From the NCBI GenBank assembly GCA_029862165.1, contig JAOTXU010000005.1, positions 31,102-95,101 of the forward strand: a stretch of 64,000 bases of DNA. The letters run 5' to 3'. The notes beneath the pieces were generated by a model. The model saw nothing but the letters and a program-made list of their open reading frames with translations, had not been told where the DNA came from and did no database searches. The first letter of the stretch is position 1; the number at the start of each line of letters is the position of its first letter. Positions 23,159 to 27,873 of this stretch are shown piece after piece. This DNA is from Gammaproteobacteria bacterium. GTDB lineage: Bacteria > Pseudomonadota > Gammaproteobacteria > Steroidobacterales > JABDKV01. The translations under genes and the position numbers were made by a program.

Positions 23159-23319
23159 GATCAACAAGGGAGCGGTGAGGTTGGACAGCGGGTTGCCAGT
23201 ACAGGCAAAATAATGGCTATATCATAGGGTTTATCAGCGGATGACCGGCACCCGCAGCGGACCCTTTCCAGATCGCGTCTCAACCGACCCGCCATTAGCG
23301 ACGCAGTTTAACAGAATAC

Positions 23320-23425: not shown

Positions 23426-24742
23426 TTGCTTAAAAAAGGCCTGCATGAATTTGTAGGAGCATTGGCGATAGGCCTGTTCATGGTCTGTAATGCTGTGTGC
23501 GCCGATGAGGAAGTCCTGCGTCAGGCCGAATCCTTTATTAATGACGGCCGTCATGCTGACGCAAGACAGATACTCGAGCCATTGGAAGCCGAGTATATTG
23601 GCGATCCTCGCTACGACTATCTGATGGGACTGGCCTTTCTGGAAACCGGCGATCCGGGTCTGGCCGTATTTGCCCTGCAACGGGCGATAGCTAATGATCC
23701 ACGCTTTGCGGGCGCCCGTGTGGATTTGGGCCGGGCCTACTACGCGTCCGGCGCCTACAAAGATGCCCGTGACGAGTTCGAGCGACTGCGTGATGAAAAT
23801 CCCCCGCCGGCCGCCCGTCGGGCGATTGAAGAATACTTGTCCCTGATCGCCAATCGGCAACGGCGTTTGCGGATGGAATATCGCCTGGGTGCACGCACCG
23901 GTTATGACAGCAATGCAAACAGTGCAACAGCCATCAATGCATTCCTGGGCTTCAACCTGCTGGAGGAGAGCCGCGAAACATCCAGTTCCTTCGCAGAGTT
24001 CAGCGGTAACATAGTTATACTCAAGCCCCTCAGTGCGAACTTGTTACTGGACACTCGTCTGGGGCTGCGCCGCCGCAACAACCCAGATGCTTCTTTTGTT
24101 AATTCGAGTAATGGCGATCTAAGTGTCGGTATTAAGCACGTCACGGAAGGTGTCAGCAAATCACTGCGTCTGCAAGCCTACCGGGTCGACGTAGACGACA
24201 AACTAAATAGCCAAGGCGTGGCGTTGGCCGGTGCCTGGGACTTTAATGTACGCGAGAAATTGCGGGTCGGTGTTCTCGGCCGCGTAGGACAAACGACCTT
24301 TGGTAATGGCCTGGAAATAAAGGACGTTGATCAATACCTGTTTGGCGTCTCCGCCGGCTGGACTTACGGTGACGGAGACCGTGCTTCGCTCGGCGGTTCG
24401 TTGCTCGTCGGAAGCGACGATCCGCGGCGCTCCGGATCGCGTTATGCCCGCGATCTGGCGGGTCTGCGTTTCAACGCCGGGTGGTCCTTTAGTTCTCAAT
24501 TTAGGGCTCAGTTCACGGCAGGATTGATGCATTCCGATTATGATGAGGTCTTCTTTGAGCAGCAGTTCAATTCGCCGCGCTCTGATACATTGGTCCAAGC
24601 TGCAGTAAAACTTGACTGGCGAATCTCTTCGAAGTGGCTTATGTCACACGTTGTTAGTTACGCGAACAATGATACTGAGGTAGATGTATTCGCGTTTGAG
24701 CGAGTGGAAACCAGTCTAAGTATTAATCGTGTTTGGCGTTGA
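23426..24742 (+). CDS. TPR plus outer-membrane beta-barrel protein, Slam/DUF560 (T11SS)-like
   Basis: Signal peptide; TPR helices (YDYLMGLAFLETGD, ARVDLGRAYY); GYDSNANS at barrel start; amphipathic strands ending SLSINRVWR; TTG 23426 has GGAG upstream (alternative start 23408). Confidence 0.7.
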   Translation: MLKKGLHEFVGALAIGLFMVCNAVCADEEVLRQAESFINDGRHADARQILEPLEAEYIGDPRYDYLMGLAFLETGDPGLAVFALQRAIANDPRFAGARVDLGRAYYASGAYKDARDEFERLRDENPPPAARRAIEEYLSLIANRQRRLRMEYRLGARTGYDSNANSATAINAFLGFNLLEESRETSSSFAEFSGNIVILKPLSANLLLDTRLGLRRRNNPDASFVNSSNGDLSVGIKHVTEGVSKSLRLQAYRVDVDDKLNSQGVALAGAWDFNVREKLRVGVLGRVGQTTFGNGLEIKDVDQYLFGVSAGWTYGDGDRASLGGSLLVGSDDPRRSGSRYARDLAGLRFNAGWSFSSQFRAQFTAGLMHSDYDEVFFEQQFNSPRSDTLVQAAVKLDWRISSKWLMSHVVSYANNDTEVDVFAFERVETSLSINRVWR

Positions 24743-24784
24743 TTGAGTCTTTAAGTTAAACAAAAACGAATAATTTTCCAAATT

Positions 24785-24832
24785 CGTGAGTGCTATCACA
24801 GCGATATCTCTTTGTATGTGAGTAGGCTCACA
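24785..24832. promoter_or_regulatory. Tandem CRP-type sites
   Basis: CGTGA-gtgcta-TCACA (24785-24800) and perfect TGTGA-gtaggc-TCACA (24817-24832), 32 bp apart. Confidence 0.72.
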
Positions 24833-24920
24833 GACCTTTCACCTCGTTTCCTGTAACTTTCGCTTGCTATCTGGGACAAGTGGCGTTTTCGTTTTTTGAG
24901 TGGAATTAAGGGTATTGGAT

Positions 24921-26429
24921 ATGAACAGGCTTATCACTAATTTTTGGCGCTTACCGGTGGCGTGCTTGCTGATGGCATTGCCATTGGCTGTAGCGCACGC
25001 AGATGCCGGACAGGCGCTGTTTGTATATGGCAAGGCTTATGTCGTGTCGCCTGATGGCAGCAGAACTGCCCTCAGAAAAGGCAGCACAGTGCAGTCTGGC
25101 GATACAATCGTGACCTCGGCCAACGGTCGTGTGCAGATGCGTATGGACGACGGTGGCTTGCTGGCATTGCGGCCGCAGACTGAGTTTGTCATTGAAGAAT
25201 TTAACTTTCCGTCGGCGGCGGGCAGCAGCTCTGCCAGCAACGGAGAGCCGAGAAGTTTCTTCGCGCTGGTCAAGGGCGGATTTCGCTCGATAACAGGCGC
25301 GATTGGTAAAGCCGACAAGTCAGACTATCGTGTACGCACACCGGTCGCGACTATTGGTATTCGTGGTACGGACTATACGGCAGTGTTTTGCGACACTGAT
25401 TGCGCGCGTGGCACCTCAAAGGGCCTGTACGTTGGCGTTACCGATGGTGGCGTGACCCTGGTAAACCGTGGCGGATCGCTTGATCTGAACCCTGGTCAGT
25501 TTGGGTTTGTGCGTGATTCTGTATCGGTTCCTGAAAAATCGGCTGCTGCCGCCAGGATGCTCGCGGCTGAAGTCGCGCCTGAGGCAGGTGATTCCGAAGA
25601 CGCAGGCGTGAGCGCCGAAGTTGCTACCGTTGCCGAAGGCAATGTCGACCTGACATCAGGTACGGAAGTAGGTAGCGATAGTGGTGCGGTGGCTTACGCG
25701 ACCGGCCCGCTTGGCAGCAGCAGTGGGTTCGCGGGCGTAGCCGCTCAGGGTTCCTCCGGCAAGGTCGTAGATGCGGAAGGCAATCCTGTTGCTTTCATGG
25801 CCGACTCTCCGCTGGGAACTGCGACGATTGAGCAAAACGGTAGCCAGGCGGTTAACGTCGGTCGCGATACTGATCGTCAGGGCGCCACCGGTTTACACTG
25901 GGGTCGTTGGACGACTGGTTCTGTGAACGTCACATCGGCGGGCGAAACGATCAACCAAAACGTTGATAACAGCAGCCTGCACTATGTAACGGGTGCTGAC
26001 GGCAACGCCGCTGTGCAACTGCCCAGCGAAGGTTCAGCCAATTTCGCACTGGTCGGTAACACCAATCCGACGGATAATCACGGCAACGTGGGTACCCTCG
26101 GTTCGGCTAGCCTGTCTGCGGACTTTACGAATCAGACCGCTGATGCTGATGTCAGCTTGTCTTTCGACGAGACCAGCCAGGTGTGGGACGCCTCGGCGCA
26201 GGATGTTGACATCAACAGCGATGCCACATTCGGCGGAGAGTTCGACTCTGTAACGGTAACCGATGCCGCCGGCGGAACTACGGCCGACGGAGCGGGTGAT
26301 GTCTCCGGCTTCTTCAGTGGCGACGCTGATGGCAACCTCAGTGGCGCGGGCATGAGCTACTCGATGACTGAGGGCGATGACAGTGTCTCTGGCGCTGCAG
26401 CCTTCCAGGTTGAAGGTGGCAGTCAATAA
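24921..26429 (+). CDS. Secreted FecR-domain protein with C-terminal TbpB-like beta-barrel
   Basis: Signal peptide ending AHA; FecR motifs GDTIVT...DGG...LRPQT...LVKGGFR...RTPVATIGIRGT; C-terminal ADFTNQT...GFFSG...AGMSYS...SGAAAF. Confidence 0.7.
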   Translation: MNRLITNFWRLPVACLLMALPLAVAHADAGQALFVYGKAYVVSPDGSRTALRKGSTVQSGDTIVTSANGRVQMRMDDGGLLALRPQTEFVIEEFNFPSAAGSSSASNGEPRSFFALVKGGFRSITGAIGKADKSDYRVRTPVATIGIRGTDYTAVFCDTDCARGTSKGLYVGVTDGGVTLVNRGGSLDLNPGQFGFVRDSVSVPEKSAAAARMLAAEVAPEAGDSEDAGVSAEVATVAEGNVDLTSGTEVGSDSGAVAYATGPLGSSSGFAGVAAQGSSGKVVDAEGNPVAFMADSPLGTATIEQNGSQAVNVGRDTDRQGATGLHWGRWTTGSVNVTSAGETINQNVDNSSLHYVTGADGNAAVQLPSEGSANFALVGNTNPTDNHGNVGTLGSASLSADFTNQTADADVSLSFDETSQVWDASAQDVDINSDATFGGEFDSVTVTDAAGGTTADGAGDVSGFFSGDADGNLSGAGMSYSMTEGDDSVSGAAAFQVEGGSQ

Positions 26430-26452
26430 TACGCGGCTCTTACCGCACAACG

Positions 26453-26480
26453 AGGCCCGCTTTAGAGCGGGCCTTTTTTT
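26453..26480 (+). terminator. Rho-independent terminator
   Basis: AGGCCCGCT-ttag-AGCGGGCCT stem followed by a T run. Confidence 0.85.
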
Positions 26481-26787
26481 GTCCTCGCCACCGATGATGC
26501 CGAGAATGATTTTTCGCCGCAAGCTGCGATTCCCGTACAAATCGATAGTAGCGCGCATCGCTCATAGATTTCCATTGATCGCAAAACGTGCTGTTTCATC
26601 AGTCGCATTTCTCTGCCTCCCATTAAAAAATTCACCCCGTTACGATGCAATAATTCTGTCGTGATTATGTTCAGAATGCTGAACATCTTGTGATCCAGTT
26701 CCTATTAGAAATGTTAACCACGTCGGCGTAGTTATCGTGATTGCGCGTTAGTGTTGTCCGTAGAGTCACGAATCGAGGATCACGTCG

Positions 26788-27387
26788 ATGTACTACACGA
26801 GCCGAAGAGTCTTTTTTGTTCTATGCGCAATCGGCCTCGCCGGTCTGACAGCCGGCTGTGCGACCACGATGACCCAGACACAGTGTGTATCGGCGGACTG
26901 GTACGCTATCGGTCTGGAAGATGGTGCTCGCGGTCAGGCCATGACACGGCTCACTAAGCATCGGCAACAGTGCAGCGAATTTGGTATATCGCCCGACGTG
27001 CAGGCGTATCAGCAGGGTCGTCTGGAAGGCCTGGATTATTTCTGTACGCTTTCTAACGGGCTGTCGGTCGGTAAAACGGGCAGTAACTACGCCGGTGCTT
27101 GCCCGGCCGAGATGGAATACTATTTTCTCACTGGCTATCGCCTGGGCCGCGAGATGCATCGCGTGCGTTCAGACATAAACACAAATCGTCGTGATTTGCG
27201 TGCTGCCGAAAAGGAATTACAAACCGAAGACGTGACCGACGAGCGTACGGCAGAGTTACGCTATAAACTGCGGACGCTGGAACGCGAGTTTGGTCGGTTG
27301 CAAGGCCGACTCGAATATCTCGAACTTGAAGAGCGTCGAATCGTAGTTTCAGACGCACGTTCGGCCAATAACGTCGTGACCGACTAG
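26788..27387 (+). CDS. DUF2799-like lipoprotein
   Basis: LTAGC lipobox; C..ADWYAIGLEDG..G, YQQG..GL..FC, Y.GACP; coiled-coil tail. Confidence 0.8.
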   Translation: MYYTSRRVFFVLCAIGLAGLTAGCATTMTQTQCVSADWYAIGLEDGARGQAMTRLTKHRQQCSEFGISPDVQAYQQGRLEGLDYFCTLSNGLSVGKTGSNYAGACPAEMEYYFLTGYRLGREMHRVRSDINTNRRDLRAAEKELQTEDVTDERTAELRYKLRTLEREFGRLQGRLEYLELEERRIVVSDARSANNVVTD

Positions 27388-27873
27388 TTAAATATGCAGT
27401 CGCCGGATCCCAGGGTCCGGCACGCTGTGTGCCCACATCTCCTCAAAAGCCGTCAGGCGCTGTCTGGCGACTTCAGGCCGTGTTTGATCGTACAAACCCG
27501 CCCACGATGATGCCTGCTTGCGCAGCGCGTATTGCGTGTCGTCTGCGATGACAAACGCATCATCACGGCTGTAAAAATCCGTCGCGAGCTTGCGGACAAT
27601 GATCTTGCTGCTAATCCGTTGAGCGACAGCCAGAAAACGATGGTCGTCGCGGGTCAATGGGCCTGTGTCGCGGATTAACACACGCATAGTACTGTGCTTG
27701 TTGCGTGTGACAAAGCTGCGTACCGCAGCGATCAAGTCGCTGCTGCCAAAAACCACGGGGTTAAGATCCGGGCTGAATATTTCCACAGATTGTCGTGCGG
27801 TATTGAGTAGATCGATGACGGCTGTGGCATAGTCACCTGGTGTATCCAGTGGTCGGCTCGTTTGCTCACTCAT
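27388..27873 (-). CDS. Conserved hypothetical protein, PLD-like fold without HKD, GNAT-associated
   Basis: ARQSVEIFSPDL...RVLIRD...AFVIADD...FEEMW pattern; overlaps GNAT gene. Confidence 0.55.
   Translation of the reverse strand: MSEQTSRPLDTPGDYATAVIDLLNTARQSVEIFSPDLNPVVFGSSDLIAAVRSFVTRNKHSTMRVLIRDTGPLTRDDHRFLAVAQRISSKIIVRKLATDFYSRDDAFVIADDTQYALRKQASSWAGLYDQTRPEVARQRLTAFEEMWAHSVPDPGIRRLHI

Follow-up and report, generated by a model that had tools for sequence, protein, structure and literature searches.

For the type 11 secretion system (T11SS), to which the Slam exporters of the DUF560 (SlipAM) family belong, experimental demonstration exists for no more than seven outer-membrane proteins, which come from a single host-associated cluster, according to the accessible portion of PMC12282271. 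In the Slam model, as set out in the accessible portion of PMC9090332, a motif at the C-terminus of the substrate is recognised and the chain crosses the outer membrane C-terminus first. Another relevant protein is NsrA of Sinorhizobium meliloti, which the available parts of PMC7529298 and PMC13001267 present as a receptor that is associated with the outer membrane, acts upstream of CyaK and is required for CyaK-dependent cyclic AMP (cAMP) signalling. Here, we describe a two-gene locus that can be compared with both, located in a stretch of 64,000 nucleotides (the window) from the genome of an uncultured sediment gammaproteobacterium (GCA_029862165.1, contig JAOTXU010000005.1, positions 31,102 to 95,101, forward strand). 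Gene 1 encodes a Slam/T11SS-like outer-membrane protein with tetratricopeptide repeats (TPR) and a beta-barrel, and gene 2 encodes its partner, which has a FecR domain as its head and a TbpB-like tail. The two genes probably constitute a divergent type 11 secretion (Slam-type) pair, in which the barrel exports or displays the lobe of the partner; judging from modelled folds and family relationships, we give this reading a probability of roughly 0.6. The exporter-substrate relation is suggested by the folds and by the conserved pairing of the genes. The pair is a real, well-conserved two-gene unit and probably a T11SS variant, with a cargo architecture that is absent from published cargo lists.

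The published T11SS cargo lists derive from matches to Pfam DUF560 and TbpBBD, and surveys of this kind miss the present clade because it falls below both thresholds. FecR is absent from the main text of the main T11SS survey papers; in the supplement of PMC12282271 it appears as a co-occurring domain of cluster 1 (201 co-occurrences, false discovery rate (FDR) 0.24) that failed the FDR filter, and hemophilin preprints name it only as a neighbouring iron regulator. No description of a FecR-headed T11SS cargo was found in a library search of the T11SS, DUF560, Slam and TbpBBD literature, bioRxiv supplements lying outside the search.

Architecture of the two proteins

Two co-oriented open reading frames (ORFs) were found exactly at positions 23426-24742 and 24921-26429 of the window (+ strand), where the first-pass annotation had read a signal peptide-TPR-barrel gene directly upstream of a co-oriented gene for a secreted protein of about 500 amino acids (aa); the actual length is 502 aa.

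23426..24742, + strand: gene 1, Slam/T11SS-like outer-membrane protein, 438 aa, TTG start with GGGGAG 8 nt upstream
23426..23503, + strand: signal peptide of the barrel protein, residues 1-26, ending VCA before D (cleavage site judged by eye)
23504..23863, + strand: periplasmic TPR domain, residues ~27-146, Pfam TPR_19 and TPR_16, model helices at 43-145
23870..24739, + strand: 14-strand beta-barrel, residues 149-438, opening with the family-invariant G-x-D-x-N-x-N
24921..26429, + strand: gene 2, FecR-headed, TbpB-like-tailed partner, 502 aa, ATG start
24921..25001, + strand: Sec (signal peptidase I-type) signal peptide of the partner, residues 1-27, ending AHA before D (judged by eye)
25002..25532, + strand: FecR-type beta-sandwich domain, residues 28-204, VATIGIRGTDY motif and CxxxC pair
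25533..25676, + strand: acidic disordered linker, residues 205-252, ~48 residues
25677..26000, + strand: handle-like beta domain, residues 253-360, invariant W327, G328, W330 and H354
26010..26420, + strand: C-terminal 8-strand TbpB-type barrel, residues 364-500

The TTG start of gene 1 is favoured by the GGGGAG upstream of it and by a 438-aa database protein that is 100% identical to the product. The N-terminus of the product is hydrophobic, and Pfam recognises only TPR repeats above cut-off (TPR_19, E 4e-13; TPR_16, E 1.5e-9). In the AlphaFold2 (AF2) model, which was built with 56 homologues (predicted local distance difference test (pLDDT) 95.0, predicted template modelling score (pTM) 0.81), seven helices are followed by exactly 14 strands, and residues G159, D161, N163 and N165 are invariant in the family alignment. 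Exhaustive structural comparison of residues 141-438 placed CymA (Z 21.4, root-mean-square deviation (rmsd) 3.5, 274 residues) and OmpG (Z 19.8), both of which are 14-strand barrels, well above all other barrels, PelBC and BcsC reaching Z 14.2 and Z 12.2 in VIA-align. The first matches of the whole model in Foldseek were BcsC (E 2e-10), EstA, CymA, PgaA (4y25) and PelBC (9h80).

The link of gene 1 to DUF560 runs through intermediate sequences. SlipAM (PF04575, Pfam cut-off 22 bits) is matched by 28 of the 56 aligned full-length homologues (best E 2e-23) and TPR_Slam by 26 of them, and a protein named DUF560 in its source record (P0052) matches the gene 1 product at E 2e-44 with 93% coverage. 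Three paralogous barrel proteins of the source genome score 17.3-19.7 bits with SlipAM, and no protein of that genome passes the cut-off. The gene 1 clade thus stands at the edge of the SlipAM family model. The first gene is thus not of a different barrel class: it encodes TPR plus a 14-strand barrel, and its homologues carry SlipAM/DUF560. The three paralogues possess one or two bacterial SH3 domains before the TPR, and the window copy has none.

In the partner, the FecR domain stands directly after a cleavable signal peptide, and neither a cytoplasmic anti-sigma domain nor a membrane helix is present in the protein. Since the only cysteine of the signal peptide (residue 15) lies ahead of the hydrophobic core and is unconserved among homologues, the partner has no lipobox and is not a lipoprotein. 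Pfam FecR (PF04773) matches at 44.1 bits (cut-off 24, E 3e-11). The initial description of a FecR protein with neither transmembrane helix nor lipobox was accurate. Two candidates were rejected: lipoprotein cargo, for want of a conserved lipobox in the partner, and classical FecIRA-type iron signalling, because an anti-sigma domain, a sigma factor and a receptor are all missing.

The partner has 853 homologues, and its AF2 model, built with 58 sequences (pLDDT 86.7), consists of a beta-sandwich (28-204), a second beta domain (257-357) and eight long strands (372-497), with residues 221-250 below pLDDT 50. The 14-strand barrel and the 8-strand cargo barrel that had been expected of AlphaFold are therefore both present in the models. 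Within the FecR region, the VATIGIRGTDY motif is conserved and the CxxxC pair is nearly invariant in the homologue alignment. The nearest structures are the periplasmic domain of PupR (6ovk, Z 15.1, rmsd 2.6, 134 residues) and BDI_1681 (4m0n, Z 14.4). Residues 35-94 match the LapA-type retention module NF033682 at 38.1 bits (E 1.6e-9) without reaching its cut-off of 50, and 42 of the 58 homologues also match it below that cut-off, while the whole-partner profile found the N-terminal region of MpIBP (5ix9, E 0.011) among PDB sequences, plus a spurious low-complexity match. The middle of the protein is acidic, as had been claimed (10 acidic against 2 basic residues in 205-252), but Ala/Glu-rich and not Gly/Ser/Asp-rich; the linker measures at least 24 aa among 28 relatives, with a median of 50 and a maximum above 1300 aa.

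The C-terminus of the partner folds as a TbpB-type 8-strand barrel preceded by a handle. The barrel superimposes on the NHBA C-domain (5o1r, Z 14.0, rmsd 2.0, 113 residues, 23% identity) with further matches to OmpX (Z 14.0) and to the fHbp barrel 4ayn (Z 11.6). The lobe as a whole gave the following matches:

fHbp: Z 12.3, model range 283-499
TbpB C-lobe (5kkx): Z 12.0, model range 252-500
Hemophilin (7rea): Z 11.8, model range 253-498
HphA (8gm3): Z 11.8, model range 254-497
HpuA: Z 11.6, model range 250-502

HphA (8gm3) is also the top Foldseek match of the whole partner model (E 2e-5), and hemophilin 8gm3 is the sole, non-significant match (E 0.36) of the lobe profile among PDB sequences. 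In the ESM Atlas, the named clusters nearest to residues 250-502 are TbpB_B_D, HpuA and hemophilin (0.86-0.89), which is a lead only. The C-terminal pattern ADF...GFF.G...AG..Y...GAAAF noticed at the outset is present and conserved in homologues. The suggestion that a FecR domain takes the place of the ligand-binding handle held for the FecR domain but not for the missing handle, as a hemophilin/TbpB-like lobe of handle and barrel was found.

The profile of this lobe (handle plus barrel) retrieved 2376 cluster representatives at E ≤1e-3, and 40 of the 150 best representatives were scanned with Pfam. One relative (P0204, lobe profile E 2e-196) reaches 46.9 bits with TbpB_B_D (PF01298), above the cut-off of 26 bits, and three others score below it (L079, 23.8; P0319, 24.6; a Paracoccus protein, 22.1 bits). 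Larger relatives repeat the handle-plus-barrel unit 2 to 8 times; TbpB has two lobes. In P0204 (2808 aa) and P0205 (3351 aa), an N-terminal FecR domain precedes eight tandem modules of this kind. A FecR head is present in 103 of the 147 top lobe representatives, most of the others looking like N-terminal fragments. The protein P0215 (1239 aa) is built differently: it has no FecR, and its signal peptide is followed by TPR (27-120), by a barrel of Slam-like type (124-413) and by three lobes resembling that of TbpB (490-1239); this single case is either a natural exporter-cargo fusion or a gene-calling artefact. Such a chain would fit a covalent link to the barrel taking the place of the FecR anchor.

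Recurrence of the pair and its gene neighbourhoods

A scan for related loci, with one genome per species, gave at least 587 loci, 80 of which were kept and scored with hidden Markov models (HMMs) from our own alignments. Of the 88 FecR-domain ORFs in the 80 loci, 72 are preceded by 1.4 kb of DNA or more, and a TPR-barrel ORF lies directly upstream on the same strand in 57 of these 72. Among the 36 of the 72 that match the tail profile, the barrel gene is directly upstream in 34, and the two exceptions are also barrel-adjacent: at one locus (L009) the barrel was missed solely on account of overlapping stop-to-stop ORFs, and at the other (L024) it lies directly downstream. Short FecR ORFs (≤400 aa) have an upstream barrel in 7 of 17 cases, compared to 50 of 55 for longer ones. 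The source genome (3.34 Mb, 49 contigs, 94.5% complete) contains four barrel genes, each directly followed by a FecR-plus-lobe gene; the pairs other than that of the window are located at C22:24953-28335, C22:39013-42581 and C24:22936-27029 (loci L093, L094 and L095). Because the pair recurs in dozens of genomes, the gene arrangement is far beyond chance, and the anticipated co-location in other genomes was borne out in nearly all relatives. Carriers include many gammaproteobacterial metagenome-assembled genomes, Pseudoalteromonas, Marinobacterium, Oceanospirillum and Fluviicoccus, as well as Rhodocyclaceae, Methylophilaceae, Gallionellales and the alphaproteobacterium Paracoccus. A tblastn search of plasmids with the partner returned one weak match (Methyloprofundus, 31% coverage) and did not reach NsrA of S. 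meliloti. In 5 loci (e.g. L019:1271-5962, L028, L030, L034), short FecR proteins that lack a barrel neighbour are encoded next to a giant protein carrying a two-partner secretion domain.

CHASE2 adenylate/guanylate cyclases are encoded in 11 of the 80 loci, six of which have barrel-partner pairs (L017, L021, L026, L064, L075 and L076); L021 is a four-gene cluster of the cultured Pseudoalteromonas denitrificans DSM 6059. In the source genome, a CHASE2 cyclase gene (L094:7958-10216, - strand, contig C22) is located directly upstream of one paralogous pair. The absence of an adjacent cyclase, reported earlier, is thus true of the window locus only, since CHASE2 cyclases adjoin one paralogous pair and six related pair loci. 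Upstream of the C22 cyclase are genes for an LVIVD-repeat protein and for a protein of 860 aa that resembles multihaem cytochromes and contains SH3 domains. Altogether, the source genome encodes four CHASE2 proteins, of which two are cyclases, one is a Ser/Thr kinase and the last is truncated where its contig ends. On contig C21, a CHASE2-Ser/Thr kinase fusion (L098:3443-7628) is followed by a PP2C phosphatase and an FHA-domain protein. On plasmid pAMI5 of Paracoccus aminophilus, the genes of a TPR protein and a FecR protein form a tight co-oriented trio with that of a CHASE2 cyclase; the TPR protein aligns with the barrel family in hhalign (probability 97.6%, E 4e-12), and the FecR protein has weak TbpB_B_D and FHBP_C matches.

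In S. meliloti BL225C (pSINMEB02), a CHASE2 cyclase query of the unannotated record led to a 1229-aa ORF directly upstream of a CHASE2 cyclase (L101:4283-7969, + strand), which contains FecR (93-187), TPR repeats (405-558) and then a long C-terminal region, and is presumed to be NsrA by its size and its position beside the cyclase. The papers citing the NsrA work make no mention of these TPR repeats in their accessible portions. An hhalign comparison of the barrel family with the presumed NsrA aligned only the TPR repeats (probability 23%). On sequence grounds, NsrA may be a fused analogue of the two-gene pair, its similarity to the barrel family being detected in the TPR repeats.

A gene for a giant Big_9/cadherin-like/HYR protein follows the pair in 14 related loci and in the three other pairs of the source genome (e.g. 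L001:7666-9138, L004:7685-12595, L021:7507-11199 and L093:295-3954). By eye, 16 of 17 such proteins have a lipoprotein-type signal, and in 12 the cysteine is followed by a Gly-rich stretch, a tether pattern also shown by surface lipoproteins of Neisseria. None of these third-gene products is matched by the lobe profile, and they could represent a second, barrel-less class of surface lipoproteins handled by the same outer-membrane protein. The closest relatives of the window locus have the same aconitase and MnmA genes upstream, plus the giant third gene. In the window, the place of the giant lipoprotein gene (26788-27873) is taken by a DUF2799 lipoprotein gene (+ strand) and a DUF7931 gene (- strand). 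In 12 loci, most of them from betaproteobacteria, the pair is followed by a gene for a TPR-GT41 glycosyltransferase (e.g. L027:8313-10514, L043:6814-9339). Genes of dihydrofolate reductase and Orn/Lys/Arg decarboxylase recur near these GT41 (O-GlcNAc-transferase-like) genes.

The window locus itself includes two further features:

24743..24920: intergenic spacer, 178 nt, AT-richer, with AAGGG before the ATG of gene 2
26452..26482, + strand: intrinsic terminator closing the two-gene unit, 10-bp stem with 7 GC pairs, then TTTTTTT

The spacer has a GC content of ~0.50, compared to ~0.56 in its surroundings. As a promoter scan of its 178 nt revealed no convincing promoter-like site, co-transcription of the two genes is likely. 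One promoter-like site was found upstream of gene 1 (23182-23211), which is no more than expected by chance. The terminator hairpin (26452-26475), located downstream of the gene 2 stop, is strong and GC-rich, with the T run after it. The pair is preceded by genes of aconitase and an MnmA-type tRNA methyltransferase and followed by those of DUF2799, DUF7931, GNAT and JmjC proteins, adenylosuccinate lyase and fumarase; all genes within ~9 kb are housekeeping. In agreement with the first-pass annotation, no gene of a TonB-dependent receptor, sigma factor or cyclase occurs among these neighbours; no heme gene was found among them either, and the window contains no polysaccharide synthase genes. 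The window pair is therefore a minimal, cyclase-free version of the module. The stretch is present in three sediment-metagenome DNA runs, and no RNA run is listed with it.

Proposed export of the lobe, possible retention of the FecR domain and rival explanations

The mechanism that we infer for export, its direction, FecR retention and signalling would begin with two products: that of gene 1, an outer-membrane protein in which a TPR domain facing the periplasm is combined with a 14-strand barrel, and that of gene 2, its dedicated substrate, exported to the periplasm by Sec. The barrel protein would then recognise the C-terminal handle and 8-strand lobe and pass the lobe to the surface C-terminus first, a direction proposed on the basis of the Slam model as it stands in the accessible portion of PMC9090332. 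The FecR domain would fold in the periplasm and, being too bulky for a 14-strand pore, stay there, while the acidic linker would run through the pore and connect the domain to the lobe on the surface. The outcome would be a lipid-free protein anchored across the outer membrane, whose FecR end could serve as a plug and could also take part in signalling wherever there is a CHASE2 sensor.

The retention of the FecR domain in the periplasm, for anchoring or signalling, is a tentative part of this scheme, which we regard as possible rather than probable. It is suggested by the periplasmic nature of the closest structural relatives, the resemblance of residues 35-94 to the LapA retention module (sub-threshold) and to the N-terminal region of MpIBP, the near invariance of the CxxxC pair and a linker that is always at least 24 residues long, as well as by the location of FecR on the TPR (periplasmic) side of the presumed NsrA and the lack of FecR in the barrel-lobe fusion P0215. 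A more far-reaching version, which must be considered doubtful, makes the T11SS pair an outer-membrane-spanning receptor instead of a means to release or lipid-anchor a protein; in it, the TbpB/hemophilin-like, ligand-binding lobe on the surface would be tethered through the pore to a FecR plug that relays ligand-induced changes to CHASE2 cyclases or kinases of the inner membrane. If true, it would amount to a general route from the cell surface to cyclic-nucleotide signalling, with NsrA-CyaK as a fused special case, and the source genome would possess four channels of this kind, of which three would work together with giant cadherin-type surface lipoproteins. When the barrel protein (26-438) and the partner (25-502) were modelled as a complex from their respective alignments, the scores were 0.27 and 0.16, below the mark of 0.32; obtained without controls, they speak neither for nor against the pair.

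Several observations weigh against an exporter-cargo pair of this kind. The HMM check proposed earlier gave the FecR match, but SlipAM and TbpB_B_D stayed below threshold on both window proteins: the gene 1 product has no SlipAM match at E ≤0.1, nor any at E ≤10 genome-wide, its TPR_Slam score is 15.4 bits with a cut-off of 35.2, and TbpB_B_D at E ≤0.01 is matched neither by the partner nor by any of its 58 aligned homologues, with none in the source genome. Membership therefore rests on intermediate sequences and structure. No solved Slam structure was among the fold matches of the gene 1 model in Foldseek or in the structural comparison. In addition, 13 of the 36 FecR proteins with no tail match have no barrel neighbour, and therefore the FecR domain in itself does not need a barrel. 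The window locus has no CHASE2 gene, and lacks the third gene of its closest relatives, having the terminator and the DUF2799 gene instead. We know of no T11SS substrate that leaves a domain in the periplasm, and of no experiment on any member of this clade. To these points should be added the resemblance of the barrel to polysaccharide porins, the fate of known non-lipidated cargo and the Leptospira matches of the FecR region, which also bear on the rival explanations. Even so, the folds, the intermediates and the conserved pairing support the T11SS-pair reading that had been put forward from the sequence.

If the pair were an ordinary soluble-cargo T11SS, the whole protein including FecR would be released or displayed, and the FecR domain would be an extracellular binding or adhesin module. 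Known non-lipidated T11SS cargo, namely hemophilin and HrpC, is indeed secreted whole according to the accessible portion of PMC8406197. The FecR region also matches the Leptospira models LipL45 (35 of 58 homologues) and Lsa33 (33 of 58), and as these are named for a lipoprotein and a surface adhesin, the domain could act outside the cell; relatives with up to 8 lobes and more than 3000 aa look like adhesins as well. This explanation is nevertheless unlikely, given that the closest solved structures are periplasmic anti-sigma FecR domains (Z 15.1 and 14.4), that FecR stands N-terminal to the TPR in the presumed NsrA, pointing to the periplasmic side, and that the pairs are recurrently adjacent to CHASE2 sensors, whose sensing domain is periplasmic. 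Moreover, a compact fold with a CxxxC pair would need to pass through a 14-strand pore. It is even less probable that nothing is secreted and that the pair is a split NsrA, a stable signalling complex of the outer membrane in which the periplasmic partner is docked on the TPR or barrel and relays signals that enter via the barrel. The presumed NsrA, encoded directly upstream of a CHASE2 cyclase, does combine FecR, TPR and an extended C-terminal region in a single polypeptide, and NsrA is described as an outer-membrane-associated receptor upstream of CyaK (PMC7529298, accessible portion), but its hhalign alignment with the barrel family covered the TPR repeats only (probability 23%). The tail of the partner is a water-soluble lobe of TbpB/hemophilin type, which to our knowledge ends up outside the cell in every studied case, and tandem lobes and linkers above 1000 aa would make little sense in the periplasm.

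An export porin for polysaccharides or other non-protein substrates, similar to PgaA, BcsC or PelB, with a merely regulatory FecR neighbour, would account for the first Foldseek matches (BcsC, E 2e-10; PgaA 4y25; PelBC 9h80) and for the TPR-GT41 glycosyltransferase gene after the pair in 12 related loci; PF04575 also catches some PgaA proteins, as stated in the accessible portion of PMC8406197. The gene 1 model, however, has 14 strands and not 16 or more, CymA and OmpG rank far above PelBC (Z 14.2) and BcsC (Z 12.2) in VIA-align, polysaccharide synthase genes are lacking in the window, and the partner has the hallmark fold of T11SS cargo, which makes a porin of this type very improbable.

Comparison with described systems

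The clade of the window pair is large, with its 853 partner homologues and 2376 cluster representatives of the lobe, and it adds a FecR-headed cargo architecture to the T11SS. It would also offer a way of anchoring a surface protein without lipid, and it gives a structural idea of how CHASE2 sensors and the NsrA relay may receive signals from outside the outer membrane.

The pairs of hemophilin or HphA with a Slam protein (HsmA) and the HrpB-HrpC pair of Xenorhabdus have the same basic organisation, in which a protein with TPR and 14 strands is encoded beside a Sec-dependent, non-lipidated protein with a handle and an 8-strand barrel. Unlike these, the window cargo has an extra FecR domain of 180 residues and an acidic linker before the lobe, the locus has neither a TonB-dependent receptor nor a heme gene nearby, and neither protein reaches the Pfam thresholds by which pairs of this type have been identified. 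Neisseria Slam1 and Slam2, which act with TbpB, LbpB, fHbp, HpuA and NHBA, follow the same two-gene logic, and their substrates have the same C-terminal barrel fold. These substrates, however, are lipoproteins anchored by an N-terminal lipid, whereas the window partner has no lipobox and carries a folded FecR domain at its N-terminus; Neisseria is an animal commensal, and the window host lives in sediment.

With NsrA-CyaK of S. meliloti, the window pair shares an outer-membrane-associated FecR protein tied to TPR repeats and, in related loci, to CHASE2 cyclases, but NsrA appears to be a single chain of 1229 aa, whereas the window locus has two proteins and no cyclase, and no similarity was detected outside the FecR and TPR parts. 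The anti-sigma factors FecR and PupR have the Pfam FecR domain in common with the partner, whose nearest solved structures are PupR and BDI_1681; the partner differs from them in having a cleavable signal peptide only, with no anti-sigma domain or membrane helix, and no extracytoplasmic function (ECF) sigma factor or TonB-dependent transducer gene nearby. The giant adhesins of LapA type, which use type 1 secretion, have a retention module that resembles residues 35-94 of the partner at a score below cut-off. For these adhesins as for the window pair, export is assumed to start at the C-terminus and to leave a folded domain at the N-terminus behind. The route would be different in the two cases, as LapA-type adhesins pass through an ATP-binding cassette (ABC) transporter and TolC, while the window partner would use Sec and an outer-membrane barrel.

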